From Chloroflexia bacterium (GTDB taxonomy: Bacteria; Chloroflexota; Chloroflexia; QHBQ01; JAICKM01): a DNA stretch of 64,000 nucleotides. Positions 18,878 through 63,796 of this stretch are shown piece by piece (position 1 is the stretch's first letter; each line of letters opens with the position of its first letter). The position numbers and the translations under genes are program-made. Where the stretch lies: contig JBPCPV010000029.1 in assembly GCA_050998805.1 (NCBI GenBank), positions 15,768-79,767 of the forward strand, given 5' to 3'. The notes under the pieces are model-generated. The model saw only the letters and a program-made list of their open reading frames with translations. It did not search any database and was not told the DNA's origin.

Positions 18878-18912
18878 GGTCAGTGGTCGGTGGTTGGTGG
18901 TCAGTGGTCAGC
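18878..18912. repeat. heptanucleotide tandem repeats (GGTCAGT/GGTCGGT/GGTTGGT, 5 units) in the 5' leader of the 17282-18865 gene
   Basis: direct reading of the sequence; located 13-47 nt upstream of the start codon on the minus strand. Confidence 0.7.
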
Positions 18913-19083
18913 CATAAGGTGAAGTGCTTCACCTATATAGACGAACTGAGCGGCGTGGAGTTACGCGGGGCCGGAGATTAGCCACAGCCACGGCAACGGG
19001 GTAGTGCTCGGCGCGCTCGATGTGCTTGCGGGAAGAAGCCGTCCACGAATACGGGGCCACGAATAGACGAATGATCAGCGATG

Positions 19084-19857
19084 TCAGCCGAGTAAAATCG
19101 TCCCGGTCGCCAAACGGCGCTCACCTTGCGGTGTGGAGACGATCAGCGTGCCGTCCCGCTCGACCCTGATCGCCATTCCCTCCACCCGTCCATCACCTGT
19201 ATCAACCCGCACTTCGGAGCCGAGCGTGGCGAGCCTATCGCGCCACTCTTGCCAGATGCCGAGGTAATTCCCCTGTTGCCACCGTATGTAGCGCGCCTCG
19301 GCCTCGCAGAGGATGCTGTTCAGCAAGTCTTGGCGACTCGGCAATGCGCCCGCCACCTCGAGTCTGAGGCTGGTCGCCGCTTCGCTGAGGCCGTAAGCTG
19401 CGGGGTCAAAGTCAATGTTGACGCCGAATCCCGCTATCACGAAATCCGAAACTCCGCCGGACATCGCCAGCTCGCAGAGAATCCCGGCTATTTTGAGCCC
19501 GCGGCAGAGCACATCGTTCGGCCACTTCAACGCCGCAGGCGCTCCCGCGCCCGCGAGGGCGGCGCGTACAGCCAGGCCGAGGATCATTACCGGCGCGAAG
19601 ACCTCGCCGGCCGGACGTTGTGGCCGCAGCAGCAGCGAGGCGAGGATCGCGCCCCCCGGCGGGGCAAGCCAGCTTCGACCGTGGCTGCCCCGGCCTGCCG
19701 TCTGCTCATCGGCGACCACGAGCAGGCCCTCCCGCGCTCCCGCCCGCGCCAGCTCCCGCACGCGGTCGTTCGTAGACCCGATCTGGGGGTAGTATTCGAG
19801 GCTGCGACCAAACCGTTCAGTAGTCAGTCCGCCAGGGGAAAAAGGCTGTTCGTTCAT
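19084..19857 (-). CDS. birA: biotin-[acetyl-CoA-carboxylase] ligase
   Basis: GRGSHGRSW, KWPNDV, GIGVN-like motifs of BirA catalytic domain; likely start MNEQPF at 19857. Confidence 0.8.
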   Translation of the reverse strand: MNEQPFSPGGLTTERFGRSLEYYPQIGSTNDRVRELARAGAREGLLVVADEQTAGRGSHGRSWLAPPGGAILASLLLRPQRPAGEVFAPVMILGLAVRAALAGAGAPAALKWPNDVLCRGLKIAGILCELAMSGGVSDFVIAGFGVNIDFDPAAYGLSEAATSLRLEVAGALPSRQDLLNSILCEAEARYIRWQQGNYLGIWQEWRDRLATLGSEVRVDTGDGRVEGMAIRVERDGTLIVSTPQGERRLATGTILLG

Positions 19858-20019
19858 TCCGATAACAGTATAGAGTACGCTCCGGCTGAGTACAAGCCGC
19901 CATAGGGCACGAATCCCGCGCCTGTAAGACACGGCTCCGCCCGTGGACCCTGGCCGGGCCTGGTGCGTCTGTGGGAGAGCGGCTCTGCCCTCGATTGGTT
20001 CGCCCTACCTCGTTGCTCG

Positions 20020-20063
20020 CACTCCGCACCCGTCAATCCGCACTCCGCACTCCGCACTCCGCC
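20020..20063. repeat. heptanucleotide tandem repeats CGCACTC (about 5 units)
   Basis: cgcactccgcacccgtcaatccgcactccgcactccgcactccgcc immediately upstream of a TTGACA box and the tRNA-Sec candidate. Confidence 0.7.
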
Positions 20064-20123
20064 TTGACAGACCCCGGCCCGGTCAGTTATCCTAGATGCA
20101 CGCCGCGCCGCGAGGCGCAGCGG

Positions 20124-20218
20124 GGGGGTGGTTGGGTCCCGGTGGGCTCCGCAGTCTTCAAAACTGTCCGGGTGTCGCTAAGAACGGCATCGGTGGGTTC
20201 GACTCCCATGCACTCCCG
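20124..20218 (+). tRNA. selC: selenocysteine tRNA candidate (anticodon UCA), 95 nt
   Basis: hand-folded: 8-nt acceptor 20124-20131 pairs with 20210-20217 (7 of 8, one G-U); 6-bp D-stem with 4-nt loop (20134-20149); anticodon stem GCAGT/ACTGT with loop CTTCAAA (anticodon TCA 20158-20160); long variable arm (7-bp stem, 20171-20191); T-arm GTGGG-TTCGACT-CCCAT; discriminator G 20218. Confidence 0.6.
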
Positions 20219-20248
20219 CCCCCTAAGAACAATGCAAAGGACAAGAAA

Positions 20249-21016
20249 ATGAATGAGGAAGAAAAGCATTTCGACTATGAGGGGCTGGGCAAGAAACTGC
20301 TGGCATACTGCCGGAAGTATTCTATACCCCCGCAGCACATCTTCGATATCCTCAATGACCAAAAAGTGATCCCCATGCTGCGCGGCAAAGGGTTGGAATA
20401 CAGCCTTAGTCTAGTTCTACCTACAGTCCTCGATGCGGCTGCCTGGCAAGTAAACAAACTGAACCGCAATGCCCAGCCGGGCATACCAGACGAGGATCTC
20501 GAAGTTATTCACAAGCGCACTGGGATCCGGCTCGTGGTCGAGTCTAAAAGTGCAGTGCGCGGCTCAATGACGCTGGGCACTCGTTCTCGGACCCACAAAG
20601 TGCCTCACTTCAAGGTCAAATGCCATCGGAGCCGGAGCAACAAGAAGCTCGAAACAAATGACCGCTACGCGGAGACGGCTTTTGATGTGCTGGTGAGCAA
20701 TCCCACAAACGCTCTCTATGCTGGCGCAACAATCGGGGAAGAACTGGAGCTAATAGACGATGCTGCGCTTATCGAAGCACTCATGCAGTACTACAATGCA
20801 GCAGGTACGTCAACTCTAGTGGAAGCTGCTGCTGCTGATTGGCGCTTCGTGCTCCCGCCTCGAATTGCTGTGGACGGGTTCATCCCGCGGACACCGGTTG
20901 TTCTGCTGACCGGCGACCCGAACTGGCAACCGCTAAATCAGCTGGAAACCCAACTAACGGCAGTTGTACAGCAACAGGCTGATGCGCGACGGCGGCCGGG
21001 TCATAGCTCAAAATAA
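20249..21016 (+). CDS. putative type II restriction endonuclease (PD-(D/E)xK-like) partner of the Dam-family MTase
   Basis: 256 aa in a low-GC segment, convergent with and overlapping the MTase 3' end; candidate motif ...PDEDLEV...VVESK; no strong family match recognisable by eye. Confidence 0.4.
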   Translation: MNEEEKHFDYEGLGKKLLAYCRKYSIPPQHIFDILNDQKVIPMLRGKGLEYSLSLVLPTVLDAAAWQVNKLNRNAQPGIPDEDLEVIHKRTGIRLVVESKSAVRGSMTLGTRSRTHKVPHFKVKCHRSRSNKKLETNDRYAETAFDVLVSNPTNALYAGATIGEELELIDDAALIEALMQYYNAAGTSTLVEAAAADWRFVLPPRIAVDGFIPRTPVVLLTGDPNWQPLNQLETQLTAVVQQQADARRRPGHSSK

Positions 21017-21848
21017 ACACTTCCCGCCCCATGTAACGTTTGCCTCGGTCGGTCGTCTTTTTGGTCTGATCATCCGTCCGGTTGATCGTGTAGTTCCACT
21101 CTTTGTCCAGCATGGCCGCCGCCCACTGATACAAGGCGCGGACTTCGGGGCTGTTGTCATACGTAAGCAGGAAGGAGAGGCGGTGGCTGTGCGTGTGCAA
21201 AACCTCAGCCAGACGCAGATGATCTGCGCGTGTGAAGCTGTAAGTGTAAAACTTGTCCTGATCCGCATTAAAGTAGGGCGGGTCTACGAACAAGAACGCT
21301 CCGTCAGGAGCCTGCTCGATGGTTTGGGCGAAATCCGCACAGGTGATCTGCACATCCTGTAACTTGGCCGAGCAGCGCCGTAGATGACCCGGCCAATTCT
21401 TCGGCTGCATACTGTAAATGTCACCATACCCCCAATAGCAGTTAGGCGCGTTCATAATCCCCGAATAGCTGGTCCGGTTAAGATAGTACCACCGAAAGGC
21501 GCGTTCAAGTTCGTTCGTCGGCCTATACACATTCTTGTAGTAAGTATGATTTTCTTTACTGGCCCCGATCCCATCCAGCAAGGCAATCAATTCCTCCACA
21601 TGATCCCTTATGTGGATATAGCAATTGACGAGTTCGGGATCTGCGTCGTTTAGGAGGTTTGTTGCAGCCTTGCTTTTGGCGAAAAAGATCGAACCGCCCC
21701 CGGCAAATGGCTCTGCATAGTAGCTGTGCGGAATCATTTGCTCCAAAATTAGCTTACGAGCGTAGAACTTACCGCCCGCGTAGCGAAACGGCGAATTGAT
21801 AGGCACCCTATCAACGGTTGCTCCCTTAGGCTGGGTTCCGATCGGCAT
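20880..21848 (-). CDS. Dam-family (D12 class) N6-adenine DNA methyltransferase
   Basis: FRYAGGK, EPFAGGGS (SAM binding) and DPPY catalytic motif; the GC-rich C-terminal ~40 codons are probably read-through past the real C-terminus. Confidence 0.8.
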   Translation of the reverse strand: MPIGTQPKGATVDRVPINSPFRYAGGKFYARKLILEQMIPHSYYAEPFAGGGSIFFAKSKAATNLLNDADPELVNCYIHIRDHVEELIALLDGIGASKENHTYYKNVYRPTNELERAFRWYYLNRTSYSGIMNAPNCYWGYGDIYSMQPKNWPGHLRRCSAKLQDVQITCADFAQTIEQAPDGAFLFVDPPYFNADQDKFYTYSFTRADHLRLAEVLHTHSHRLSFLLTYDNSPEVRALYQWAAAMLDKEWNYTINRTDDQTKKTTDRGKRYMGREVFILSYDPAAVAHQPVAVQLPLVGFPADLAVASSGRRSAEQPVSAG

Positions 21849-21871
21849 CGTTGTGTACTCCCGGACGATCT

Positions 21872-22135
21872 TTAGCGTTGAGTACTTGTAGCGTTAGCAG
21901 GCTCGATTACCTCGCCCAAACTGTAAACTGGGCTAAGTTCCTTTAGCACGGAAGCAAAATCCTGGCGCTGTGTCTCGTTATTGAGCAACTCTATGAAGTC
22001 CTCGAAACTCAGCACAACAGCCTGCGGTGTGCCGCGCCGTTTGACAATGTAGCGCGTGCGCGTACGCACCACATCATCGAGGACCTGCCCGAAGTTGTTC
22101 TGTGCATCAGTTGAGCTGACAGTCTTGGTAGCCAT
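21872..22135 (-). CDS. Phd/YefM-family antitoxin-like protein (orphan, no toxin gene adjacent)
   Basis: 87 aa; TDAQNNFGQVLDDVV...IVKRRGTPQAVVLSFEDFIELLN matches the YefM/Phd pattern; sits directly upstream of the MTase. Confidence 0.65.
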   Translation of the reverse strand: MATKTVSSTDAQNNFGQVLDDVVRTRTRYIVKRRGTPQAVVLSFEDFIELLNNETQRQDFASVLKELSPVYSLGEVIEPANATSTQR

Positions 22136-22225
22136 CCATCTTATCCAATCTAGCTAACTTAGCTATATTATAGCAGACGTTAGGCGTTCTGTCAATACCT
22201 TTCTCCCGGCAAAACAGCTCGCCCT

Positions 22226-23773
22226 CTACTTGTGTACCGGCGTGAAGAGGTCGGCCAGCCGGTGCGCTGTGAGATTTCTCCCTTCCGACACGATCAGCCA
22301 ATCACCGGCGATTGCCACTCTCCTATAGCCGCCAGCCCTCGGTCCTAACAGCCGCATCGGAATGCGATCAGTCAGTTTCATTCCCCAGACTTCTCCATTG
22401 AGACCCCCAGCGTAAGCCGTCCAAACGACGGTGTTACCACGGATCGCTGCGCTGGATCCCTTCCCGCCGGGCAGAGGCGTTGTAGCCCCGGTGTCGAGGT
22501 TGATGAGCAGAGTAGGGTTGGGAGAGTCAGCCCACACCAAATAATGGCCCGAGAGTATGGAAGACCCGAAAAGAGCGCACTGGCCTGTCGTTTGCTGCGC
22601 GGCGGTTTGTACCTGGCCGGTCGAGCGCCTTAGGTAATGGAGGTCGCAATCCAGTCCAGCACCGTATTCAGTCCAGGCAAAGTATTCATCACTGACAGCA
22701 ATGCCGTATCCAGCTGGCCGAGCAGAAGCGACGACGCTGGTCGTATTGGTATCAAGGTCTTTCATAACCAAGCGGGTATTTGGTCCGCTGTCCTCAAACC
22801 ACGCGACGGTTCTGCCGACGATAGTAGGGGCGAAATCCCCCAAAGCGATGGTGAAGGTAATCCCGGTGTCGAGGTCTTCCCCCAGGACGGCACCATTTCC
22901 ATCTGCCCAGACGATTGTAGAGCCTGAAACCGAGTAAGAGAGATATACAACCGACCGGTTAGCAGCTATGGGTTTGGTGTGCTGGCTATTACGAACGTCT
23001 ACAGCGTAGAGTTTCTCATTCGGATGCTCGCTGTATGGAGAGTCTTCTATCCAAGCCAAATAGGTGTTCGACCCGACAGGCCCGCCCTGTGCCAGCCCCT
23101 GTTCCGCCGGCGGCGGAAGCGTCACCGTGCCGTAGCGTGTGCGCTGCTGGTACGTGCCGAGCTGGGTCAGCAGCACTTCGTATGGCGTGCCGGCGTTTTC
23201 GGGGTGTAGCTCGAACGCGGCGCGCTCGAAATATTGTACGGTGTAGGGCTTGTTGTCGAGGTCGCTGACCTCGGTGAACTCATCGGAGATCGGGTAGCCC
23301 TGCTGGGCGAGTCCGCCGTGAGCCTCCCAGTAGCGCCGGAAGAAGCCGCCGACGGTGTGGCCAGTCTGTGGGAAGTAGCGCGGTGCCTCGGACGATGCGT
23401 GCTGGTCGGGAGCGCCGTCGGGACCGTAGTACTCTCGGTAGCGGTAGTCGCCAAGCAGCGACGGCAGTACCTCGAACGGGGTGCCTGCGTTCTCAGGGTG
23501 GGATTCGAGGACGGCGCGCTCGAAGTACTGGACGGTGTAAGGCTGTCCGTCAGTATCCGAGGTTTCGATGAGGGGGTCGCTGATGGGGTAGCCGAGTTGG
23601 GTGAGGCCGCCGTGGGACTGCCAGAAGGAGAGGAAGCTGCCTGAGACTGTGTGGCCGGTTTCGGGGAAGGTGCGGGAGGCAGGTTGGGCCGTAGCCGGAG
23701 GGACCGAGGCCGGTGGGAGCGCCAACAGCGCGAGCAGCAGCAACGTTCTCGTACGGCCAAAGCAAAGAGCCAT
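22226..23773 (-). CDS. secreted protein with two LGFP-like repeats and a C-terminal beta-propeller-like repeat region
   Basis: signal peptide MALCFGRTRTLLLLALLAL (RBS aaggagg); duplicated ~70-aa unit ...FWQSHGGLTQLGYPISD...YTVQYFERAVLE...; start set at the signal-peptide Met rather than the longer track ORF. Confidence 0.5.
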   Translation of the reverse strand: MALCFGRTRTLLLLALLALPPASVPPATAQPASRTFPETGHTVSGSFLSFWQSHGGLTQLGYPISDPLIETSDTDGQPYTVQYFERAVLESHPENAGTPFEVLPSLLGDYRYREYYGPDGAPDQHASSEAPRYFPQTGHTVGGFFRRYWEAHGGLAQQGYPISDEFTEVSDLDNKPYTVQYFERAAFELHPENAGTPYEVLLTQLGTYQQRTRYGTVTLPPPAEQGLAQGGPVGSNTYLAWIEDSPYSEHPNEKLYAVDVRNSQHTKPIAANRSVVYLSYSVSGSTIVWADGNGAVLGEDLDTGITFTIALGDFAPTIVGRTVAWFEDSGPNTRLVMKDLDTNTTSVVASARPAGYGIAVSDEYFAWTEYGAGLDCDLHYLRRSTGQVQTAAQQTTGQCALFGSSILSGHYLVWADSPNPTLLINLDTGATTPLPGGKGSSAAIRGNTVVWTAYAGGLNGEVWGMKLTDRIPMRLLGPRAGGYRRVAIAGDWLIVSEGRNLTAHRLADLFTPVHK

Positions 23774-23825
23774 ATCCAACCGAGGGCCTCCTTGCCTAAT
23801 AATACCCCCATAGCCGCACGCGGGT

Positions 23826-24740: not shown

Positions 24741-24868
24741 GGGCGTATTATAGCACGGGCGCGAGCTTTCAGCTTTCGTGTTTTTCGTGGATCGGCTTAA
24801 TACGGCTGTGGACCGATGTGGAGAGGCGCTCGGATCGGGTAGTATATAGATAAGGAGGGTGAGATTAA

Positions 24869-38511: not shown

Positions 38512-39474
38512 TTGAACTGGGTAGATTGGGCGCTGCTCGTGATGGTCGGCCTGACGGCAGCGGCAGCCACCGGCCGGGGCTTTTTGCAGGTCTCCGCGGG
38601 GTTGTTCGGCTTCTTGTTGAGCCTGGGCACCGCCCTCCTCTTCACCACGCCTGTCGCCGCATGGCTCGCCGGACACACAGGCTTGCCCGAACCCTGGACC
38701 CCGCCTGTCGCCTTCTTCGCCAGCTGGCTCGGCACCCAGATAGTCTACACCGCCGTCTCGCGGATACTGCTCGGGCGCAGCCTCTACAGGGCCGCCCGTT
38801 CGCCGCTGAACAGGTGGCTCGCGCTGTTGCCCGGCGCGCTCCAGGGTCTGCTCGTCGGCGGGCTGCTGCTGACGCTGCTCGCGCTCGCGCCGATCCCCGG
38901 CCTGCCCCACCAGGCGATCCTCGACTCGGAGATCGGGGGGCGGCTGGTGAGCGCGGCAGTGGACCTGGAGCGCCCGCTCGAAACCATCTTCGGCCCTGCC
39001 CTCCAGCAGACGCTCGGCTTCCTCACCGTCAAGCCCGAGATCGGGCCGGGGGAGACGGTTGCTCTCAAGTTCGAGGTGAGCGCGCCGACGACCGACGCGG
39101 ACGCCGAAGAGCAGATGTTGAGCATGGTCAACGCGGAGCGCAGCAAGGCCGGTCTCCCGCCGTTGGCGATGGACCCACCGCTGCGCGACTTGGCGCGGGC
39201 GCACGGAGCCGACATGTTCCGGCAGGGCTACTTTTCGCACACTGGGCGCGATGGCCGCTCTCCGTTCGACCGTATGCGCGACGCAAACATCACCTACACC
39301 GCCGCAGGTGAGAACCTCGCGCTCGCGATCAGCACGGCGCGCGCCCACCAGGGGCTTATGAACAGCCCCGGCCACCGCGCGAACATCCTCAACCCCGCCT
39401 TCCGCCGAGTCGGCATCGGCGTGATGGACGGCGGCATCTACGGCAAGATGTTCGTCCAGGAGTTCACCGATTAG
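38512..39474 (+). CDS. CvpA-family membrane protein fused to a C-terminal CAP (SCP/PR1-like) domain
   Basis: N-term LNWVDWALLVMVGL (CvpA-like start, TTG), C-term YFSHT...NSPGHRANIL...FRRVGIG CAP motifs; the 38350 track start is probably an over-extension. Confidence 0.55.
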   Translation: MNWVDWALLVMVGLTAAAATGRGFLQVSAGLFGFLLSLGTALLFTTPVAAWLAGHTGLPEPWTPPVAFFASWLGTQIVYTAVSRILLGRSLYRAARSPLNRWLALLPGALQGLLVGGLLLTLLALAPIPGLPHQAILDSEIGGRLVSAAVDLERPLETIFGPALQQTLGFLTVKPEIGPGETVALKFEVSAPTTDADAEEQMLSMVNAERSKAGLPPLAMDPPLRDLARAHGADMFRQGYFSHTGRDGRSPFDRMRDANITYTAAGENLALAISTARAHQGLMNSPGHRANILNPAFRRVGIGVMDGGIYGKMFVQEFTD

Positions 39475-42400
39475 TGGCTTTCGACCCGAACGACAGGGAG
39501 CAACTCCTGGCGGCGTTCCGTGCGCGCTATCCCTTCGCGCTCGACGACTTCCAGGAGGAGGCGATAGGTCGCCTCGCAGACGGCGAGTCTGTGATGGTCG
39601 CCGCGCCGACCGGCACCGGCAAGACTGTGGTGGCCGAGTTCGGCGTCTTCCGCGCCCATGCTCGCGGCTGGCGTGTCATCTACACCACGCCGATCAAGGC
39701 GTTGAGCAACCAGAAGTTCCGCGACCTGCGGGTGCAGTACGGCGACGCCGTCGGCCTGCTCACCGGCGACATCGTGGAGAACCGCACCGGCTCGATCCTG
39801 ATTATGACCACCGAGGTGCTGCGGAACATGCTCCTCCAGACCCCCTCCGAACTCTGGGGCGTCGGCTGCATCGTCTTCGACGAGATCCACTACCTCGCCG
39901 ACAAAGAGCGCGGCACCACCTGGGAAGAGTCGATCATCATGTGCCCGCCCGACATCCAGCTTGCCTGTCTCTCCGCCACCGTCAGCAACGCCGGTGAGGT
40001 CGCCGGCTGGATCAGCCGCACCCACAGCCTCATTCACCTCGTGACCCACTTCGAGCGGTCGGTGCCCTTGAACTATTACTACTACCTCGACGGCGAGCCG
40101 AACCTGGTGATCAACGCGGCCGGAGTGCAGGTGGCGAACTTTAAGGGCGTCGGCGGCGAGGTGCGGCTGAAGATGCGCGGCCCCGGAAGCTGGACCGCCG
40201 ACGACGACGAGGACAACCGCCGCGCCCGCGAGCGCCCCGAGCCGACCCCGCGCGAGATCGTCGAGTCGCTCGAACGCCGCGACATGCTGCCGGCGATCTT
40301 CTTCCTGTTCAGCCGCCGCGACTGCGAGGCAGCCGCCGAGGTCTGCGCGATGATGCGCTTCCAGGCGTCCCACGAGCCTGCCGCCCGCAAGCGGATCGAG
40401 GCGGTGCTCACAAGCTACCTCAACAGGCTCGACCCCGAAGATCGCAGCCTCGAACAGGTCAAGACGGTGTTATATTTAGCCCGGCGCGGCCTCGGCTTCC
40501 ACCATGCCGGTCTGCTGCCGATACTCAAGCAGCTGGTCGAGGAGCTGTTCAGCGCGGGGCTAATGCGGGTCGTCTTCGCCACAGACACGCTCGCGCTCGG
40601 CATCAACATGCCGGCCCGCAGCGTCGTGATCGGGCGGATGTCGAAGTGGGACGGTGTGTCCCGCCGCCCGCTGATCCCGAACGAGTTCCAGCAGATGGCT
40701 GGCCGCGCGGGGCGCAGGGGGATCGACAAGCAGGGCCATGTGATAATCCCGTACAGCCCCTGGGTCTCGTTCACCGACGCCCTCGCGATCGCAACGGGGC
40801 CGTTGCTGCCGGTCGAGAGCGCGTTCACGGTTCGCTACAACACCATCCTCAACCTCTGGGACGCCCCGCGCGGCGACCGCGTGCTCGCCGTGATGCGCCA
40901 TAGCCTCTTGCAGTTCCAGCAATCGCGCCGCCTCTTCGACGTGGAGGCGTCCGTCGCCGAGTGGGACGCGGCACTCGAAGCCAACCCGACCGGCTGCCTG
41001 ATCGGGCTACCCGCCGGAGAGGATCTGCTCGACGAGTACGAGGCTCTGGGCCGAGCGGTACAGACCGGGCGCGACAGGTCGCGCAAACTCAGTGCCGCCC
41101 GTGAGCGGCTCGAAGCCAAGCGCACCTCGCTCCCCTGGCCCCGCCCCGACCGGGAGACGCTGCGCCGCCTATTTCGCGTCTTCCCGAAGGGCGGGCTTGT
41201 CCACATCGAAAACCGGGGCTGGGCCGTCTACCTGGCCTCGCGCCTCGGAGTTGCCGGCCTCTTTTGGTTGGGAGACAGGGTGATCGCCGTCCCGAACTAC
41301 AGCAGCATTGACTACATCCCGCCCGCCCGCCCCCAGATTGCCCTACCGACCGAGTTGAGCGACCTGGCTGAAGCCGGCACCGCCATGCCGGTCGGCGAGG
41401 GCATCCCAGTCAGCCACGAGGCGCGGGAGTGGATGGCCGAGCAGTTGGCCGGTATAGATCTGCCGGACCTCGAGCAGTGGATCGCCGACCACCAGCAGCA
41501 GCAGAGCGTCGAACTTGACGCGCAGCTCGCGCAGTTCGACACCCAGGTGGCCGGGGCCGGAGAGTACCTGCGCCGGGTTGTCGCGGAGGAGCGGGTGCAT
41601 CCCTGCCATACCTGCCCTGTTCGGAAGCAGCACCGAAGCCGCAGACGGGAGCGAGCGCGCATCGAGGCGGGGCGGCAGCAGGCGGTGGACTTCCTCGACG
41701 CCAGGCGGAACTATGAGGACACACGCCTCCAAACTCTGCTCGACGGGCTGATCGGCGTGCTTCAACGCTTCTACTACCTCGACGCCGAGGGCCGCACCAC
41801 CGACAAAGCGCCCCGCCTGATGGACCTCTTCGACACCAACTCGCTGATGATCTGCGAACTGCTCGAAGCAAGCTACCTCGACGGCCTGCACCCCGCCGAT
41901 CTGGCAGAGGTTTTCTCCTGGTTCGCCTACGACCGCGATGTGGACTTCCGCAACCGCAATTTGCTGCCCGGCCAGCTTGTCAACCTGCGGCGGAGGCTCG
42001 ACGAATTGCAGCGGGAGATCTTCTTCATCGAGCGCCGCCACGGGCTGATGATCACCACCGGCTACAACTCGTATTTCTTCGGCACGGTGCGCGCCTGGTG
42101 CCGGGGGGCCGACATGGCAAGCCTGCTTGCGAAGGTCGAGTTGAGCGAGGGCGACATCGTGATGACGATGACCAAGACGCTCGACCTGATGCGCCAGGTG
42201 CGCGAGATGCTGGTGCGCCACGAGCCTGACGCGCCCCTCGTCGTCGCCCTCCGCGAGGCCGACCACCTGTTGCGCCGGGGCGTTGTCCAGCTCGTGAACA
42301 GCCTCGGCTTCGTCGAGAGCACGCCCGCCTCAGAGACCGCCGCCTCCACAGCGCCCGCAAGCCCGGACACTCCGCCGACAGCCCTTGCCGCCCGCGCCGA

Positions 42401-42533
42401 CACCGGCTTCGCCGACATAGACCGTATGCTCAACCGCCTCGCAGACCCGAAGTTGGCCCCACCCCTTATCCCGCCCCGCGACGCCGACCTACAGCACCCA
42501 GCGCGCCGCCCGCCTAAGCGCGGCAAGAGGTAG
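39474..42533 (+). CDS. Ski2-like DEAD/DEAH-box helicase (HelY/Mtr4-like)
   Basis: Walker A AAPTGTGKT, DEIH box, SAT, helicase C motifs (QMAGRAGRRG), long C-terminal arch/DSHCT-like region; GTG start overlapping the upstream stop. Confidence 0.8.
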   Translation: MAFDPNDREQLLAAFRARYPFALDDFQEEAIGRLADGESVMVAAPTGTGKTVVAEFGVFRAHARGWRVIYTTPIKALSNQKFRDLRVQYGDAVGLLTGDIVENRTGSILIMTTEVLRNMLLQTPSELWGVGCIVFDEIHYLADKERGTTWEESIIMCPPDIQLACLSATVSNAGEVAGWISRTHSLIHLVTHFERSVPLNYYYYLDGEPNLVINAAGVQVANFKGVGGEVRLKMRGPGSWTADDDEDNRRARERPEPTPREIVESLERRDMLPAIFFLFSRRDCEAAAEVCAMMRFQASHEPAARKRIEAVLTSYLNRLDPEDRSLEQVKTVLYLARRGLGFHHAGLLPILKQLVEELFSAGLMRVVFATDTLALGINMPARSVVIGRMSKWDGVSRRPLIPNEFQQMAGRAGRRGIDKQGHVIIPYSPWVSFTDALAIATGPLLPVESAFTVRYNTILNLWDAPRGDRVLAVMRHSLLQFQQSRRLFDVEASVAEWDAALEANPTGCLIGLPAGEDLLDEYEALGRAVQTGRDRSRKLSAARERLEAKRTSLPWPRPDRETLRRLFRVFPKGGLVHIENRGWAVYLASRLGVAGLFWLGDRVIAVPNYSSIDYIPPARPQIALPTELSDLAEAGTAMPVGEGIPVSHEAREWMAEQLAGIDLPDLEQWIADHQQQQSVELDAQLAQFDTQVAGAGEYLRRVVAEERVHPCHTCPVRKQHRSRRRERARIEAGRQQAVDFLDARRNYEDTRLQTLLDGLIGVLQRFYYLDAEGRTTDKAPRLMDLFDTNSLMICELLEASYLDGLHPADLAEVFSWFAYDRDVDFRNRNLLPGQLVNLRRRLDELQREIFFIERRHGLMITTGYNSYFFGTVRAWCRGADMASLLAKVELSEGDIVMTMTKTLDLMRQVREMLVRHEPDAPLVVALREADHLLRRGVVQLVNSLGFVESTPASETAASTAPASPDTPPTALAARADTGFADIDRMLNRLADPKLAPPLIPPRDADLQHPARRPPKRGKR

Positions 42534-42548
42534 AAGGCGGACGAGTTG

Positions 42549-42590
42549 TCAGCCGTCAGCGTTCAGCCGTCAGCTTATCAGTGATCTATC
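42549..42590. repeat. heptanucleotide tandem repeats (TCAGCCG/TCAGCGT units) at the start of a structured low-GC intergenic region
   Basis: cagccgtcagcgttcagccgtcagcttatcag... Confidence 0.6.
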
Positions 42591-43015
42591 AGCTTTCGAG
42601 GGCTGCGCCAGGCACGTCGGGCGACCTCCAGCTTGTAGTTCGTGCCTGGGGGCTTATTATAGATAGCATTTCGCGCAATCATCTTCTCAGGCACACAATG
42701 GCCCACTATTTTTCCTCTTCATGCCGAAATATACTCCGATCGGAGTATTTTTGGAAAACCGGGCAAAACCCGCGGGCAAGTCTTCCGGCGCGGCCCCGCG
42801 CCATTCTGTTTTCAGGCACGGATTAGGGCGTTTTCGCCCCGCTATTTTTACCCTCTCACTTTATATATCCATTTCGGGGGCCATTTACTGCAAGATTTTG
42901 CCCCTAAAACGGGAGGCGGGGCGAAAGATACTCCAAATGGAGTAGGCCGATGGCGGAAGCAGGGCGGGGACGAGGAGGTGTGCAATGTGGACTATTGACG
43001 GCACCTACTGTCTAT

Positions 43016-44194
43016 CTATGGGACTACAGGCGCAGGAGTCGGCGAAGGAGGGCGGGGCGTCGAGGTAGAATGAGCGGCGGTTGCCGTGGGGTCCGCCGCC
43101 GTTGGGGTTGCGGCGTGTGGTGTCGCTGTTGAGGCGGGCTGGGTTGGCGTGGACGGTAGCTGGGTTGCGGTCGGCTGCGCCAGGGTCGGGGTTGGAGGCA
43201 GCGGTGTTGCCGTCGAGGGTTGCTGGGTCGGGGTTGGAGGCAGCGGTGTTGCCGTCGGGGGTTGCTGGGTCGGGGTGGACGGCAACGCAGTCGCAGTTGG
43301 GGCCAGCTGGGTTGGCGGGACCGGCAACTGAGTTGCGGTCGCGGGCGGCTGGGTTAATGTCGGTGGTGCCTGCGTTGCTGTCGGCTGCGCGGCGGTCGGG
43401 GTTGCGGTTGGTGTGAACGGAGCCGCGGTGTTTGTCGGCCCCGGCGTGGGCGTGCTCGTCGCCTGCGGCCCCTGAGTTCGCGTCGGCTCCGCTGCCGGCG
43501 TAGGTGTGGCAAGCTGGGGAGGGACGGGTGTGGCAGTGGCCTCTGGGGTCGGCACCTCGGTGGGCTGCGGCGGCTCAGTCGGCAGGGGCGGCTCCGTCGG
43601 CGACGGCTCCGGTGGAGCTGCTGTGGCACTCGGCTCGGCAGCCGGCAGCGAAGTCTGCGTCGAGCGAGAGGGCGGTGCCGGGGCTGTCGGCAGTTCAGAC
43701 GGCGCGACCGGCGGGCTGGTCACCGTCGGGGGCGGCGGACCGATGGGCGCACCCGGCAGCGGCGTCACTGTAGCGAGCGGCGGCAGCGTCGGATAGCCCG
43801 ACGGAAGCCCGGTCGGCGTGTCGTCGGTGGCGCTGGGAGCGGGGCGGTGGGTTGGCGTGACTACGCTCGTCAGAGAAACAGGAGCGGTCGCAAAAGACAG
43901 GACGGGAGTCGGGGAGGCAGGCGTTATGGCCGGCAGGCCGGACCGCGCTTTCCAGGGCTGCCAGACGGCGAGCAGTGCGCCCGCCGCGACCAGCAGAACC
44001 GCCGCCGCAAAGTACGCGCCTCCGGCAGGCGTGAGGCCAAACCGGCGGGGTCGCGGCTCCGAGGACGGCCAGCCGCCCCGGGCGTCGTCTGTGAACTCGG
44101 GGTAGGTGCCTGCCACTCGCGCGCGCTGGTCGGTAGCCTCCGGCTCCGAGCCTGTCTCGAATCCCCCCTCGTTACCGTGATACGGCTCAGACAT
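43016..44194 (-). CDS. single-pass membrane protein with long Pro/Thr-rich repetitive extracellular region
   Basis: cytoplasmic N-term, TM helix AYFAAAVLLVAAGALLAVW, then ~300 aa of PT-rich repeats. Confidence 0.5.
   Translation of the reverse strand: MSEPYHGNEGGFETGSEPEATDQRARVAGTYPEFTDDARGGWPSSEPRPRRFGLTPAGGAYFAAAVLLVAAGALLAVWQPWKARSGLPAITPASPTPVLSFATAPVSLTSVVTPTHRPAPSATDDTPTGLPSGYPTLPPLATVTPLPGAPIGPPPPTVTSPPVAPSELPTAPAPPSRSTQTSLPAAEPSATAAPPEPSPTEPPLPTEPPQPTEVPTPEATATPVPPQLATPTPAAEPTRTQGPQATSTPTPGPTNTAAPFTPTATPTAAQPTATQAPPTLTQPPATATQLPVPPTQLAPTATALPSTPTQQPPTATPLPPTPTQQPSTATPLPPTPTLAQPTATQLPSTPTQPASTATPHAATPTAADPTATAAHSTSTPRPPSPTPAPVVP
43183..43275. repeat. ~45-bp coding tandem repeat (2 near-identical units) inside the PT-rich protein gene
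   Basis: ttggaggcagcggtgttgccgtcg(a/g)gggttgctgggtcgggg repeated. Confidence 0.6.
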
Positions 44195-49792: not shown

Positions 49793-50995
49793 TCAGTCCA
49801 CTTGGACTATGATCGCGTCTCCCTGCGCCGTGCCGGAGCAGATCGCCGCGAGGCCGATGCCGCCTCCCCGCCGCCGGAGTTCGTAGATCAGCGTCATCAG
49901 GATGCGTGCGCCGCTCGCACCGATCGGATGGCCGAGCGCGACCGCGCCGCCGTTCACGTTGACTATCTCGGTGTCGAGGTGGAGGCGGCGGCTGCTGATG
50001 ATTGTGACGCTCGTGAAGGCCTCGTTGATCTCCACGAGGTCAATATCGTTCGTCGTCAGCCCGAGGTGTTTGAGGGCGTTGTGCGCGGCCATCGCCGGAG
50101 TGTAGGCCAGGTAGGGGGTGTCCCATGCGGCCTCGCCGTAGCCGAGGATGCGGGCCAGCGGCTTGAGTCCGTGTGCTTTTGCGTATACTGCCGAGGCGAC
50201 GACCAGTGCGCCCGCGCCATCGCTGAGGCCGGGCGCATTACCGGCAGTGATCGTGCCGTCGGCTCCGAAGACCGGCTTGAGCTTCGCCAGACCCTCCGGC
50301 GTCGTGTCGCGGCGTATAGCCTCGTCTTTGTCCACGATGATCGGCTCGCCCTTCTTCTGCGGTATCCGCACCCCTACGATCTCGTCGGCGAAGCGGCCCT
50401 CGTCCTGGGCGGCAGCCGCGCGCTGGTGGCTCCTGTAGGCCCATGCGTCCTGCTCCTCGCGGCTCACGTGCTCTTCCGCCGCGACCGTCGAGCCGTGCTC
50501 GCCCATGTGGACCTTGAGCATCGGGTCGGTCAGGCCGTCATACACAACGCCGTCTATCATCTCGCCGTTGCCCATCCGCTGCCCCCAGCGCGCCCCCATG
50601 AGGTAGTAGGGGGCGTTGCTCATGCTCTCCATGCCGCCGGCCACGATCAGGTCGTGCCTGCCGAGCCGGATCAGGTCTCCGGCCAGAGTGACGGCACGCA
50701 TACCACTCGCACATACCCGGTTGATCGTGTCCGAGGTGACTTCGCGCCCCAGCCCCGCCTTGAACGCCGCCTGGCGCGACGGCACCTGGCCGAGGCCGGC
50801 CTGCACCACGCAGCCCATGATGTTGTGCGTAATGTCTTCCTTCGGCACATCCGCCCGCCGGACCGCCTCGCCCATCACGCAGGCCCCCAACTCCACCGCA
50901 GACAACGGCAGTAAGCTGCCGCCGAACTTGCCGAACGGAGTGCGGACTGCGCTCAGAATTACCGGGTCTTGATCGTTCGCCATTTTGTTGCTCAC
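49793..50995 (-). CDS. acetyl-CoA C-acetyltransferase (thiolase II)
   Basis: catalytic Cys ([10 protein letters not shown]), C-terminal [14 protein letters not shown] thiolase signatures. Confidence 0.9.
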
Positions 50996-51178
50996 TTTCT
51001 AAAAGCTCGTAAGCTATCAGCCGTCAGCCGTCAGGCTCCATCTGTCCACGCCGTAGTGTACCACCGGCGAAGGCGGTTGTGCAACTCAAAAGCATCGGTC
51101 TTTAGACGGATCTTTGGGGGCTTTGTATGTCGCTTGGTCTCGGCGTGTGCTATAATGGGGGCGAGGAAGGGACAGCGA

Positions 51179-57834: not shown

Positions 57835-57931
57835 GCCGTCGCGGAACCCGCCGCGCCCCTCTTACGTTGTATTCTGTAGCGGGCGGCGCTGTGCCAACCT
57901 CTGGTCCTGTATTTGGAAAGGTGAATTAAGA

Positions 57932-59404: not shown

Positions 59405-59411
59405 GCCGGAG

Positions 59412-59894
59412 CTACTTGATCTCCGGGAGGCTCGTCCAGTCATAGCCGATCTCGGCGTCGTCGTGGGAGATGCGGCCTTCCTCGGCAGGGTCGTAGGTCT
59501 TCGAGGTGACGTAGAACAGGTGACTGAGGGCGAGGGCGCGGCAGCCGTGGGCGACGCCGGGCGGGATCTTGAGCACATTCTGAGGGTAATTCTCGCCCAT
59601 GAACAGTTCCATAGTCACCCCATGCGTCGGGGCGTCGGGGCGTGTGTCGTAGAGGGCTACTTTGAGCGCGCCGAGCGGCACATACCACCAGTCAACCTGG
59701 GTCTTGTGGATGTGCCAGGCTTTGCCCACGCCGGGGTGCATCATCGAGTGGCTGAGTTGGGCGAAGCCCTCTCCGAAGAACGGGTCGGTGACGCGGATGA
59801 TCTCGCGGAAGTAGCCGCGTTCGTCGGGGTGGGTGGTCAGGTCTTTGATCACCACGCCTTCAATCGCGGGCTTCGTAATCCTGGTATCGGCCAT
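59412..59894 (-). CDS. dTDP-4-dehydrorhamnose 3,5-epimerase-like cupin (RmlC family)
   Basis: DERGYFRE..., HIHK... RmlC-like motifs; start MADTRITKP after trimming the over-extended track ORF. Confidence 0.7.
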   Translation of the reverse strand: MADTRITKPAIEGVVIKDLTTHPDERGYFREIIRVTDPFFGEGFAQLSHSMMHPGVGKAWHIHKTQVDWWYVPLGALKVALYDTRPDAPTHGVTMELFMGENYPQNVLKIPPGVAHGCRALALSHLFYVTSKTYDPAEEGRISHDDAEIGYDWTSLPEIK

Positions 59895-60010
59895 GCGACG
59901 GGTCTCCTCTGTGCCGGCTGTGTCGGGTAATCGCAGCCCCATTCTACCACAGTCCGCCGGCCGCGCGCAAACATTGCCCATGCCGCGCAGCTGTGTTATG
60001 ATACAGGAGT

Positions 60011-61210: not shown

Positions 61211-61881
61211 GCGTCGAGGTGCGCCTGGGTGGCCCCCGCGCGAGGCTTGCCTGCCTCGCGCTTGACGACGGCTACACCACCGCCCGCATGTGGCAAGCTG
61301 CCACGCATAGCTCGGACGACCCCGCGCTCGGCCTTGCCTCGTTGGAGAGCGGCACCCCCGATGCCCCATTCAGCGTCAGCTTCCAGCAGGTGCGCCTGCC
61401 CCGGCCGGTTGAGGTGCCCGGCATCTGCGGCCTGCGCCCCCCGGAGGCCCGTCTCGCCGCCTGGGAAGCCGCAGGTTGCCTGCTGGTCGCCTGCCCGCCG
61501 CAACCGGCTCTCAACCCACCGCCGGGCGACGCCGATGCCGAGCCGGACCCTGCCGAGATCCCGGTCGAGGTCTGGGGCTACGTCTCCCTGAGCGCGGTTC
61601 CCGACGCGCACCTCGCCTGGGTCGCCGAGCTTGTGGTAGACCCCGAGCACCGGAGGCAGGGGTTGGGCAGCACGCTGCTCGACGCCGCCCGCGCCTGGGC
61701 GGCCGCTCCCGTGGAGGACGGCGGCGGCGGCAGGCTGTCGGCGCTCGGCCTCGAACTCGCGCCCCGCAACTACCCGGCGATCTCCTTCTGCCGCCGCGCT
61801 GGCTTCACCTTCACCGGCTACACCGACTACACGGCGGCCGGCGGCGACCTGCGGCTGTTCTTCGTCTTGCGTATCGCCTGA
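61207..61881 (+). CDS. GNAT-family N-acetyltransferase
   Basis: C-terminal VDPEHRRQGLGSTLL acetyl-CoA binding motif; ATGA overlap with the upstream gene. Confidence 0.5.
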   Translation: MSVEVRLGGPRARLACLALDDGYTTARMWQAATHSSDDPALGLASLESGTPDAPFSVSFQQVRLPRPVEVPGICGLRPPEARLAAWEAAGCLLVACPPQPALNPPPGDADAEPDPAEIPVEVWGYVSLSAVPDAHLAWVAELVVDPEHRRQGLGSTLLDAARAWAAAPVEDGGGGRLSALGLELAPRNYPAISFCRRAGFTFTGYTDYTAAGGDLRLFFVLRIA

Positions 61882-61888
61882 CGGGCTA

Positions 61889-63796
61889 CTATCTCCACCC
61901 AAGCCGCCCCGCTGTCTCCTCTGCCGCCTTGCCGACGGCAGTGGGCGTGGCGTGGGGCAGGTAGAGATAGCGCGCGGCGAGGGTCTGGGCCAGGGCAGGG
62001 GCCTCGCCCGCAGATAGGTAGCGGAGGCGGGTGTCGATCACCAGCGTTGCGGCTGCCCCGCGAGCCGAGAGCGTAGCCCAGCGTCCCGCGAGCGCAACGA
62101 CCTCGGCGGCGATGCCTTGGGGCGTGGGCGGGGCAGCCAACGGCACATTCGCCCGCCCGTCGGTCAGCAGCACAAGTAGCGTGTGCCCATAGCCGCCGGG
62201 GCCTGCCCGCACTGCCACCTCCAGGCCGAGCGCCAGCGCCGAAGCCAGCGGTGTGCCGCCCCCTGCAGGCAGGCTCTCCAGCAGGCGGCGGGCGCGCGCA
62301 GACGAGCGCGTCGGCGGAAGCAGCAGCCCCGCCTCCGGCCCCCGTATGCCGATCAGCGCCACCCGATCGCGCCGGAGGTAGGCGCGTTCGAGCAGCAGCA
62401 ACGCAGCTCCCTTCGCCGGTCCCAGCCGGTTGCGCGCCATCGAGCCGCTCGCGTCCACCGCCAGCACAAACAGCACTCCCGCCGGTGCCTCCGGCGTCCG
62501 CCACCGCAGATCCTCGGCCCGCAGGACGAACTTACCTCCATCCTCCGATTGCGGAGTGCGGAGTGCGGATTGCGGAGTACGAGGTCCCACGTCCCAGGCG
62601 CTAATCGATGCGTAGTCTGCACTCCGCAATCCGCGATCCGCAATCCGCCAAGCCGCCGCCTCCAACGTCGCCGACACGTCGAGTGTCGCCCCCCGGGGCC
62701 GGCGTCTATCTGCCCGAGCCGGCCCCGGCCTGCCGTGCCGCGCCGGCAGTAGCCTCCGCTCCCCGGCCATCCGCCCCGCGCCGACCTCGCCTGTCCACCC
62801 GCCGTTCCGCCTCCCCGCCGGGTTCGGCAAAGCATCCCTCGGCAGAAGCGCCGCCTGCGCCCCGATCAGCCGCTCGACGAGTGCGGAGTGCGGAGTGCGG
62901 AGTGCGGAGTCACCCTCGCTGTCATTCTGAGCGCCGCCACTGTCATTCTGAGCGTAGCGAAGAATCTCCGCCGACGGTTGACGGTTGACGGCTGACGGCT
63001 GACCGCCTGCGCGCGGCGCGAGGACGAAGGCGACCGCCAGATCGAGGTCCACGTCCTCGACAACGGCGCGGCCGGCCAGCGTGGCGACGGCGCGGGCGGC
63101 GCGGGCCGCGAGGTAATCCGCGCGCAGCCCCGTCACGCCGAGGCGCATGGCTACGGCGGCGAGCACGGCGATCTGGTCGTCGGCGATTGCTGCGTAGTGC
63201 GTAGTGCGTAGTGCGTAGTGCGGATTGAGGGGCACTGACGGCTGCTCGCTAACGGCTGCTCGCTGACGGCTGCTCGCTGATTGCTGAATGCGCCCGTCGC
63301 CATATTCCGCACTCCGCACTCCGCACTCCGCAATCGGTAGCCAGAGTCCGGCCTGCTCGAGCAGCGAAGGGTAGCGGGACGGCGCGGCTGTGAGCAGGAG
63401 GAGGCGGGTGGGGTGCCGGGCGCTCAGGCCGTCGCGCTCTAGCTGAACAGCGCCGTGCCGGAGGGCGGCGGTGAGCGGGGCCACGATTTCGGTCGGCAGG
63501 AGATCCGGGTCGGGCAGCCATAGCACGCCGCCGTCGTGGGCCGCGAGCAGGCCGGGGCGGACGACGCGCCGTCCCTGCCGGAGCGTGGCGTCGAGGTCGA
63601 GGCCGCCGAGCATCTGGTCGGGTGCGATGCCCACGGGCAGGCGCAAGACGCGGGCTTGAGGGCCGAGGGCAGCCGCGAGGCTGGCGGCGGCTTCGCCCAG
63701 CTCCCAGCCGTCGCCGCCGAGCAGGGCAAGTCCGCCGAGGGCGGGGTCGAGCGCGAGCATGGCGAGGGCGGTTTCGAGCGAGAGGTCGGGCGTCAT
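61889..63796 (-). CDS. Mg-chelatase subunit D-like protein (degenerate AAA+ N-domain + C-terminal VWA domain) carrying three in-frame heptamer-repeat insertions
   Basis: N-term AAA-like, lid helix GLRADYLAARAARAVATLAGR..., C-terminal VLFVLAVDASGSMA...GGTPLASAL...LTDGRAN VWA/MIDAS; translationally coupled (ATGA) to the upstream chlI/bchI-like gene. Confidence 0.7.
   Translation of the reverse strand: MTPDLSLETALAMLALDPALGGLALLGGDGWELGEAAASLAAALGPQARVLRLPVGIAPDQMLGGLDLDATLRQGRRVVRPGLLAAHDGGVLWLPDPDLLPTEIVAPLTAALRHGAVQLERDGLSARHPTRLLLLTAAPSRYPSLLEQAGLWLPIAECGVRSAEYGDGRIQQSASSRQRAAVSEQPSVPLNPHYALRTTHYAAIADDQIAVLAAVAMRLGVTGLRADYLAARAARAVATLAGRAVVEDVDLDLAVAFVLAPRAGGQPSAVNRQPSAEILRYAQNDSGGAQNDSEGDSALRTPHSALVERLIGAQAALLPRDALPNPAGRRNGGWTGEVGAGRMAGERRLLPARHGRPGPARADRRRPRGATLDVSATLEAAAWRIADRGLRSADYASISAWDVGPRTPQSALRTPQSEDGGKFVLRAEDLRWRTPEAPAGVLFVLAVDASGSMARNRLGPAKGAALLLLERAYLRRDRVALIGIRGPEAGLLLPPTRSSARARRLLESLPAGGGTPLASALALGLEVAVRAGPGGYGHTLLVLLTDGRANVPLAAPPTPQGIAAEVVALAGRWATLSARGAAATLVIDTRLRYLSAGEAPALAQTLAARYLYLPHATPTAVGKAAEETAGRLGWR
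62556..62658. repeat. composite heptamer-repeat block with inverted arms (GATTGCG/GAGTGCG x5 ... GCACTCC/GCAATCC x4) inside the chelatase-D-like ORF
   Basis: direct reading; arms are reverse complements, giving hairpin potential. Confidence 0.7.
62878..63004. repeat. composite repeat block (GAGTGCG x4; 14-nt direct repeat tgtcattctgagcg x2; GACGGTT/GACGGCT x4) inside the chelatase-D-like ORF
   Basis: direct reading of the sequence. Confidence 0.7.
63186..63340. repeat. composite repeat block (GCGTAGT x4; 14-mer gacggctgctcgct x3; CCGCACT x3) inside the chelatase-D-like ORF, splitting the AAA core from its lid
   Basis: direct reading of the sequence. Confidence 0.7.

Follow-up and report, generated by a model that had tools for sequence, protein, structure and literature searches.

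Tandem arrays of seven-nucleotide units recur in bacterial DNA, and 11 of them stand in a 64,000-nucleotide stretch of a Chloroflexia metagenome-assembled genome (MAG) that is the subject of this analysis (GenBank assembly GCA_050998805.1, contig JBPCPV010000029.1, positions 15,768 to 79,767; hereafter the window), seven of them inside a single gene of the magnesium chelatase subunit D type. In the survey of long simple sequence repeats (SSRs) by Mrazek, Guo and Shah (2007), as far as two later papers summarise it, heptanucleotides are the most abundant long SSR in most prokaryotic genomes, and polymerase slippage over a 7-nt contact was proposed (PMC4679880, PMC4692102). Each Xanthomonas genome carries about 185 arrays of GGGAATC, with 70-75 cases of convergent inverted pairs (Rehm et al. 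2015, PMC4692102); these arrays are about four units long, vary in length between close species and have no link to insertion sequences, and the convergent pairs can form stem-loops. The same authors mention GGGGA(C/T)T repeats in Nostoc and note the lack of any detailed literature on heptameric repeats (PMC4692102), and the literature searched here contained no later general treatment. In Beggiatoaceae, cyanobacteria and Bacteroidetes, arrays of TAACTGA lie immediately upstream of start codons, and no mechanism of transfer is evident (MacGregor 2015, PMC4679880); heptamers near promoters and start codons of Nostoc affect reporter expression (bioRxiv 10.1101/2022.06.06.494920). The sequence-only reading in which the window's arrays were noticed, made without database searches, overlooked that heptamer excess and convergent pairs had already been published for other bacteria (PMC4679880, PMC4692102). 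Literature searches with the sequence strings themselves (heptamer arrays, encoded peptides and a 25-nt motif described below) returned nothing relevant.

That reading had likened the arrays to the short tandemly repeated repetitive sequences (STRRs) of cyanobacteria, and the likeness holds for the repeat family as a class. The units of STRR1, STRR2 and STRR3 are reportedly CCCCAGT, TTGGTCA and CAACAGT, as Mazel and colleagues are said to have described in 1990. Like the STRRs, the window's repeats are dispersed tandem heptamers that fall into several unit families per genome; the strong excess of period 7, the dispersal of the arrays and the small number of unit families fit the comparison, but the units are not those of STRR1 to STRR3, and none of the three forms an array in the window as analysed with Tandem Repeats Finder (TRF). 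One window unit, TGACCAC (a rotation of ACTGACC), is a single base off the complement of the STRR2 unit, TGACCAA, matching at 6/7 positions. The hosts also differ, a Chloroflexia MAG of 65% G+C here and (heterocystous) cyanobacteria there. With the long SSR class of Mrazek, Guo and Shah (2007), as its later summaries convey it, the window shares a strict period of 7, the predominance of heptamers over other tandem repeats with units of 5-11 nt, and arrays that are dispersed, mostly short and phylogenetically scattered, whereas paired polarity and composite cassettes within genes, both found here, are absent from those summaries. The window arrays belong to the heptanucleotide simple-repeat or STRR-like class, to which they add the Chloroflexia and new units; they are not a new kind of system. 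A high-G+C Chloroflexia lineage with new unit families thereby joins repeats that have been on record for 35 years.

The 11 heptamer-based arrays found by TRF are short (median about 30 nt for the arrays of this genome) and are distributed over five loci in a window of 65.2% G+C. All arrays named by the sequence-only reading are present, at coordinates that are exact or off by 1-2 bases, and the core that it described as shared in both orientations is found as GAGTGCG and as CGCACTC. Three unit families can be told apart. Family A has the unit ACTCCGC, found in both orientations, and the variants AATCCGC and ACTACGC, which run through whole arrays; family B has TCAGCCG, whose reverse complement is the GACGGCT array of the chelatase gene; and family C has GGTCAGT. 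A run-length scan that counted near-perfect arrays, with 30 dinucleotide-preserving shuffles as its null, found six period-7 arrays of at least three copies where 0.00 were expected; the same scan of the window found zero arrays of at least three copies at periods 5, 6 and 8-15. The two-copy words of the two main units are also in excess, ACTCCGCACTCCGC with 21 matches at up to two mismatches against 1.39 expected (15-fold) and TCAGCCGTCAGCCG with 10 against 1.39 (7-fold). A comparison with shuffled sequence had been proposed as a check, and within the 64-kb window the heptamers exceed expectation; the excess of arrays is confirmed as real and not due to chance.

Beyond the window, what persists is the period. 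A degenerate 25-nt pattern of unit A (3.6 copies) was run over 185,579 species genomes, with a chance expectation that we estimate at <0.1, and it matched at least 120 loci. The matches listed include Acidobacteriota, Planctomycetota, Verrucomicrobiota, Gemmatimonadota, Chloroflexota, Bacteroidota and Armatimonadota; most of the records listed are MAGs, with the isolates Achromobacter, Burkholderia and Noviherbaspirillum among them. The unit A pattern also occurs in 44 IMG/VR stretches, and exact three-copy arrays of units B and C occur in 36 and 59. In a second Chloroflexia MAG of similar base composition (L003, 66.9% G+C), 7.3 kb of sequence hold 12 or more distinct heptamer arrays, with units that recur in the window (CTGACCA and TCCGCAC) among them. 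Across 3.0 Mb of array-bearing loci there are 666 period-7 arrays of at least three copies (22 per 100 kb), against 39 or fewer for any other period from 4 to 12. In loci picked solely by the unrelated 25-nt motif, period 7 again comes first, at 10.3 arrays per 100 kb where the other periods have 0.4-4.1, and the 85 arrays in these loci use 57 different units. Because period 7 leads even with 57 units among 85 arrays, the invariant is the 7-base period and not the sequence. The same diversity, in loci that were not selected by unit, weakens the proposal that the shared unit reflects horizontal spread of one element across phyla; the recurrence of unit A across phyla is real, yet it is no evidence for one spreading element. 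A further candidate, that heptamers free of stop codons are the ones that expand, was rejected, as only 30 of the 85 arrays in this unbiased set lack stops in all six frames, a property that 50% of all heptamers have.

Comparisons between related contigs suggest that the content of array sites turns over much faster than the flanks. Two IMG/VR contigs (L130 and L160) are 98.4% identical over 10.4 kb and differ in the approximately 100 nt that hold their arrays. At this site L130 (12990-13110) has a convergent ATTGCGG/AATCTGC pair and L160 (10360-10470) has an unrelated GC-rich palindrome with a CCGCAAT array, and the alignment reads as a clear case of rapid content turnover at an array site. 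Another two contigs, 94% identical, keep the same array (L126 and L146). Two species of Pyrinomonadaceae (L019 and L023, 77-90% identity) carry a hairpin cassette at the same site with an identical left arm; in the right arm every unit is changed from AATCCGC in L019 to CATTCCG in L023, a case of concerted evolution that destroys the complementarity of the arms. In this cassette (3775-3836 in L019, 4480-4549 in L023) the spacer of 22-25 nt has GGGAGAG-N4-ATG on its minus strand, and therefore a putative ribosome-binding site and start codon would lie in the hairpin loop; the peptide that follows the ATG is like the N terminus of a hydrogenase maturation protease. The divergence of L130 and L160 at the array and the unit-wide change between L019 and L023 support the suggestion of the sequence-only reading that the heptamers mark hotspots of slippage or recombination.

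The seven arrays within the chelatase gene are arranged in three blocks, which are numbered here from the start of the gene and listed in order of position:

61889-63796, minus strand: host gene of the BchD/ChlD family (Mg-chelatase subunit D-like, VWA), 635 aa, with Pfam matches to VWA_2 and AAA_lid_2
62547-62648, residues ~383-417: block 3, two inverted arrays that converge; left arm (TGCGGAG/TGCGGAT)x4 at 62547-62581, spacer of 29 nt, right arm (ACTCCGC/AATCCGC/GATCCGC)x4 at 62611-62645(48); TRF arrays TGCGGAG at 62550-62578 and GCAATCC at 62619-62648
62879-63003, residues ~265-306: block 2, a composite cassette; (GAGTGCG)x4.6 at 62879-62910, core, (GACGGTT/GACGGCT)x4.4 at 62973-63003; TRF arrays GAGTGCG and GACGGCT at the same positions
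63189-63341, residues ~152-203: block 1, two inverted arrays that converge and enclose a third; left arm (TGCGTAG)x4.6 at 63189-63224, (CTGACGGCTGCTCG)x3.3 at 63235-63280, right arm (TCCGCAC)x3.9 at 63306-63341; TRF arrays TGCGTAG at 63191-63222, a 14-mer of two heptamers at 63235-63280 and TCCGCAC at 63306-63332

In blocks 1 and 3 the arrays are paired in inverted orientation and so form hairpins, which the sequence-only reading overlooked. Block 3 forms an inverted repeat (I1) with 35-nt arms that are 83% complementary, and its predicted RNA fold has an energy of -59.4 kcal/mol (z=-5.4). Block 1 forms a second (I2) with 36-nt arms that are 81% complementary and 81 nt apart, enclosing the array whose 14-mer is made up of two alternating heptamers; its predicted fold has an energy of -64.8 kcal/mol (z=-3.8). 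Both resemble the Xanthomonas type in that the pairs are convergent and the G-rich strand is 5' on both strands. However, the Xanthomonas units contain G-tracts that form G-quadruplexes, whereas no GGG run is present in the units of the window, and the Xanthomonas arrays are 89-93% intergenic, just after ORFs (open reading frames), whereas both window pairs lie inside ORF 61889-63796.

Block 2 has a different composition. It does not fold into a hairpin (RNA fold z=-0.27), and its A array and B array flank a core that contains the 25-nt motif as one partial and one full copy (GTCATTCTGAGCG at 62921 and 62942; AGCGAAGAATCTC at 62956-62968). This motif, GTCATTCTGAGCGNAGCGAAGAATC, which appears in block 2 as GTCATTCTGAGCG(T)AGCGAAGAATCTC, occurs in 92 IMG/VR stretches (loci L167-L258), and its reverse complement encodes EILR[FY]AQNDS. 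It often has an inverted partner (GAGATTCTTCG...CTCAGAATGAC) 15-40 nt off and is sometimes bracketed by inverted heptamer arrays (L206 and L209); its local association with arrays is about 2-fold (8 against 3.6 expected). The motif had no match in the literature by sequence and the window copy had no match in Rfam; it has the look of a small palindromic repeat in its own right, and a widespread one. Small dispersed repeats (SDRs) of Nostoc are reportedly embedded in tandem heptameric repeats, an observation attributed to Elhai and colleagues in 2008. In layout block 2 is like these SDRs, as a motif of about 25 nt, which forms a small hairpin of its own, lies between its heptamer arrays and is dispersed in many unrelated contigs; the hosts differ. 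A resemblance to the start of the motif plus unit A is also seen in the coding DNA for the N terminus of a thiolase in the window (50935-50962, ...GTAATTCTGAGCGCAGTCCGCACTCCG..., encoding VILSAVRTP), but this is taken as chance because the stretch that encodes VILSAVRTP is a conserved thiolase motif, and it illustrates that such words can yield false matches.

The ORF that carries the blocks is intact. Its 635-codon frame is open through all seven arrays, and the DASGSM motif of the metal ion-dependent adhesion site and other invariant residues are kept. The protein scores 363 bits against the NCBIfam model BchD-ChlD, below the cut-off of 499.6, and the gene follows a ChlI-like gene. In the protein database it is 100% identical to an entry named 'MAG: VWA domain-containing protein [Chloroflexia bacterium]' (P0001), encoded on a contig of 99.7 kb, whose protein cluster has one member, and the next-nearest relative is 59% identical. 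Alignment with the nearest homologues (53-59% identity) and with ordinary BchD places the blocks as insertions or as replaced variable segments, with block 2 replacing a Pro/acidic linker outright. Two homologue loci (L121 and L122) are syntenic, with chlI, chlD and genes for a GNAT protein, an AI-2E transporter and a dTDP-sugar isomerase, and no heptamer array of at least three copies was found in their syntenic DNA (21.8 kb and 13.6 kb). These comparisons show that the arrays are lineage-specific additions, which in the chelatase gene replace variable disordered linkers with the frame kept.

An AlphaFold model of the protein, built from a 42-sequence alignment, has a mean predicted local distance difference test score (pLDDT) of 73.8. 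Values below 50 are predicted at residues 159-164, 182-191, 193-198, 266-301 and 391-421, which coincide with the blocks; across block 1 the modelled score is 44-61 over residues 161-200, while the flanking domains score 80-94. The sole other low-confidence segment in the model is a native linker at residues 316-355, and the blocks are thus predicted to lie in disordered linkers. Three arrays have TGA or TAG on the plus strand, and all three are placed so that the coding (minus) strand is stop-free. We take the gene to be under selection and the peptides encoded by the repeats to be tolerated as linker filler. A comparable case is that of the Rickettsia palindromic elements (RPEs), which stand in frame in protein genes and have a conserved consensus of about 100-150 bp. 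Both RPEs and the window blocks are palindromic repeats of a non-coding type that stand in ORFs, add peptide in a tolerant part and leave the gene intact, but RPEs share a full-length consensus, whereas the window blocks share solely the 7-base period and the unit family.

The explanation that we favor, at a probability of roughly 60%, is that the arrays are heptanucleotide SSRs in which slippage or local conversion alters the length and makes the units alike, that their sites are unstable, and that selection filters the outcome. They are neither genes nor a transposon family. An array would start from a two-copy seed and then grow, shrink and become homogenised in 7-base steps by replication slippage or local conversion, and each arm of a pair would evolve independently of the other. 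Arrays and hairpins are proposed to destabilise the site, and because of this its content would outpace the flanks in turnover. Selection would then allow arrays to persist in untranslated regions, while coding arrays would persist only if their overall length is divisible by three, no stop codon falls on the coding strand and the protein can do without the segment. The majority of copies are probably passengers, neutral or selfish. Side effects on expression are nevertheless possible, and the sequence and predicted folds offer three candidates: an unstructured C-rich leader 5' of a ribosome-binding site, an array that abuts a -35 box, and two stems of about 30 bp within an mRNA.

Several observations weigh against this explanation. 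The 7-nt polymerase contact is, as PMC4679880 summarises it, a published hypothesis and not a demonstrated mechanism. Slippage alone does not explain how arrays and pairs are seeded, nor why the G-rich arm is 5'. Approximately 16% of arrays in the 3.0 Mb of loci are in complementary inverted pairs (median arm 30 nt, median spacer 34 nt), and these have the G-rich arm 5' on both strands in 63 cases against 4 (p=1e-14), for which slippage gives no reason; for units unrelated to family A the count is 26 against 4. Convergent polarity also prevails (25 against 4, p=1e-4) among neighboring arrays with unrelated units, defined as those that are neither similar nor complementary and mismatch at three or more of 7 positions in both comparisons; these neighbors cannot form hairpins because their units are not complementary. 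Within the literature searched, convergent orientation had previously been reported solely for same-unit Xanthomonas pairs, and the generalised polarity rule is an addition to it. The composite blocks of the chelatase gene replace pre-existing sequence wholesale, of which slippage gives no account. Arrays of ACTCCGC/AATCCGC, TCAGCCG and GGTCAGT recur across many phyla and viral contigs far above chance, which hints at a shared source or at a constraint on which units can expand. Finally, the nearest relative of the chelatase protein, at 59% identity, is too distant for a comparison of copy number in this organism. Any mechanism must account for the invariance of the period, the polarity of the pairs and the fast turnover of sites relative to their flanks.

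One way to account for the blocks would be as non-autonomous mobile hairpin cassettes with heptamer arms, similar to MITEs (transposable elements of the miniature inverted-repeat type), repetitive extragenic palindromes (REPs/REPINs) or RPEs, which are moved in trans and can insert in frame. The absence of the blocks from orthologues, the inversion of their arms and the conserved 25-nt core that block 2 has in common with the viral contigs would all be expected of such cassettes, as would the in-frame arrays in an hrpB-like gene of an Acidobacteriota MAG (L009). In this gene, a DEAH helicase gene at 7250-7900, there are four in-frame arrays of AATCCGC type, of which one is an inverted pair. 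However, terminal inverted repeats (here arms of 35-36 nt, 81-83% complementary) are the only MITE/REP character that was found; a target-site duplication or fixed target and a full-length consensus with defined ends were not. In the larger set, the 15-nt flanks of 49 pairs share no longer words than displaced controls, neither direct nor inverted, spacers are unrelated between genomes (3 of 854 spacer pairs share an 11-mer), and the outer junctions of pairs fall in variable phase, which leaves no fixed ends. Unit sequences are highly diverse, arm lengths within pairs are uncorrelated (rho 0.12) and the arms change length independently. A Pfam scan of 32 window ORFs found no transposase, HUH or reverse transcriptase gene. 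The proposal of the sequence-only reading that the heptamers are footprints of mobile repeats, in the transposon sense, is not supported on these same grounds, and we consider cassette mobility unlikely. Nor is there support for mirror-image arms, which fold-back copying would predict, since arm lengths are uncorrelated, the flanks are not inverted copies and the arms of L023 are mismatched.

It is equally doubtful that the arrays are selected cis-regulatory elements, acting as binding platforms, as a leader site for ribosome standby or of S1/Csp/CsrA type, as an upstream promoter element, as a hairpin for the stabilisation or processing of mRNA, or, in coding DNA, as a phase-variation switch like the heptanucleotide repeats of neuO. 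The four arrays outside the chelatase gene are as follows:

18878-18911, minus strand: (ACTGACC)x4.9, read as GGTCAGT on the plus strand (TRF, 85% matches, score 47)
20018-20062, plus strand: (ACTCCGC/CGCACTC)x6.4 with one interruption (TRF, score 67)
42548-42574, plus strand: (GTCAGCC)x3.9, with degenerate TATCAGT/GATCTATCAGC copies to ~42590 (TRF and sequence)
51017-51034, plus strand: (TCAGCCG)x2.6-3, extending to 51038 (TRF, 100% matches)

The first of these is located in the 5' leader of ORF 17282-18865 (minus strand), a few bases 5' of an AAGGAG Shine-Dalgarno sequence and an ATG, a position like that of TAACTGA in Beggiatoaceae (PMC4679880) and of the Nostoc heptamers (bioRxiv 10.1101/2022.06.06.494920). 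The TAACTGA arrays of marine Beggiatoaceae have 2-6 copies upstream of starts, and their core ACTGA is common with ACTGACC. A few TAACTGA arrays are found inside ORFs, and the same unit occurs in distant phyla (PMC4679880). The Beggiatoaceae genome has one dominant unit, nearly always forward with respect to the downstream gene, and one inverted pair, whereas the window has several units and contexts. In the predicted RNA fold of the leader the 18878-18911 array is unpaired, and the sole stem is a perfect 18-bp palindrome, AGGTGAAG-TG-CTTCACCT at 18917-18934. The palindrome adjoins a TATATA, lies between the heptamer array and the region upstream of ORF 17282-18865, and is by its sequence a candidate operator for a dimeric regulator.

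The second array stops 1 base before the TTGACA of a sigma-70-like promoter-like site that precedes the gene for selenocysteine tRNA (tRNA-Sec), and it also lies about 90 nt upstream of a divergent birA-like gene encoding a BirA-type ligase. The promoter-like box had been proposed by the sequence-only reading, and it matches consensus as TTGACA-18-TATCCT at 20064-20093. The tRNA-Sec gene itself (20124-20220) is the sole Rfam 15 match in the window. The third array begins 15 nt past the stop codon of a DEAD/DSHCT helicase gene (39474-42533, plus strand) and is the only one in the window, a single array and not a pair, with the post-ORF position seen in Xanthomonas, where the mean distance is 28 nt (PMC4692102). 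The fourth lies between divergent thiolase and glyoxalase-family genes, upstream of the thiolase ATG (50983, minus strand) at a distance of about 33 nt. The positions at the Shine-Dalgarno sequence, the -35 box and the stop codon, together with the cassette held at the same site in two Pyrinomonadaceae species, speak for a regulatory role. However, the contexts are mixed (5' leader, promoter-upstream, 3' end and coding) with no consistent strand relative to transcription, the syntenic relatives are without arrays in the single comparable region, arm complementarity is lost in L023, and seven arrays in one biosynthetic gene would be an unlikely design for a switch. A role as intrinsic terminators was rejected for three of the arrays, since none was called over 18878, 20018 or 42548 (intervals 18700-20300 and 42400-43100), and the 42548 array is distinct from two terminator-like sites that were called near 42790-42840. 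The arms of the paired arrays are not trailed by T-runs, and Rfam 15 gave no match at gathering score over arrays or hairpins in the window.

Alternatively, the arrays may be scars of break repair, in which reiterated short-template synthesis in a 7-nt register extends the facing 3' ends at a double-strand break or gap before the ends are joined, sometimes with filler. Such a process predicts G-rich repeats that run 5'->3' towards a common center on both strands, as in a head-to-head fusion of telomeres. It would accommodate the observations that slippage does not, namely the near-universal convergent polarity of complementary pairs, its presence in neighbors that do not pair and the replacement of resident sequence instead of simple insertion, and it would be consistent with arbitrary spacers, uninvolved flanks and the lack of target-site duplications, with the wholesale swap of content between L130 and L160, and with different units side by side in L003 and block 1. 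If true, heptamer arrays would mark past breaks, and the question of why seven would come down to the enzyme responsible. However, no heptamer-adding enzyme is known or was identified in this analysis. Block 2 violates the polarity rule, as both of its arms are G>C on the same strand, and the heterotypic pairs may once have been complementary and have since diverged. Most arrays stand singly, with approximately 84% outside inverted homotypic pairs, and concerted evolution within arrays is explicable by slippage alone. That the polarity rule goes back to a repair pathway in many phyla, leaving 'mini-telomere fusion' scars that slippage later reshaped, is in our judgment improbable, as is the break-repair origin as a whole. 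An assembly or sequencing artefact of MAGs, which the prevalence of MAGs among the array-bearing records listed might suggest, is very improbable given that the arrays lie inside a 64-kb contig with the 635-codon homologous frame open, that the same array is found in independent related contigs, that arrays occur in isolate genomes too (Achromobacter, Burkholderia and Noviherbaspirillum) and that finished Xanthomonas genomes show the same architecture (PMC4692102).

To the class as previously described, this analysis adds hairpin cassettes that stand in frame within a conserved gene, a connection with the widespread 25-nt motif and the generalised polarity rule. There are also consequences for annotation. 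Arrays and the 25-nt motif create odd peptides in real proteins (ALRTPHSAL, PQSAIRN-type and EILRYAQNDS), fill spurious ORFs in MAGs and can shift frames. An example is the hrpB-like gene of L009, where the first array coincides with a change of reading frame; a pseudogene, an assembly error or recoding is possible there.

The surroundings of the tRNA-Sec gene have further features. The 3' acceptor end of the tRNA (...GCACTCCCGCC, 20205-20220) is similar to the end of the A array that lies upstream of it (...GCACTCCGCC, 20046-20062), which is probably a coincidence given the 7-nt unit. Directly after the tRNA, the interval 20300-23300 has 52-57% G+C against 63-68% around it, and it holds a D12-class N6-adenine methyltransferase gene (20880-21848, minus strand) and ORFs with no Pfam match. 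This interval may be a small island at the tRNA, although a search for an attachment site found no second copy of the tRNA 3' end. Longer-period coding repeats that are not related to the heptamers are also present in the window. Repeats of 42/84 nt at 43119-43355 lie in ORF 43016-44194 (minus strand), which has no family match, and repeats of 15/18/36 nt at 5619-5795 and 6502-6605 lie in the N- and C-terminal parts of a peptidyl-prolyl isomerase (PPIase)/SurA-like gene (5106-6704).

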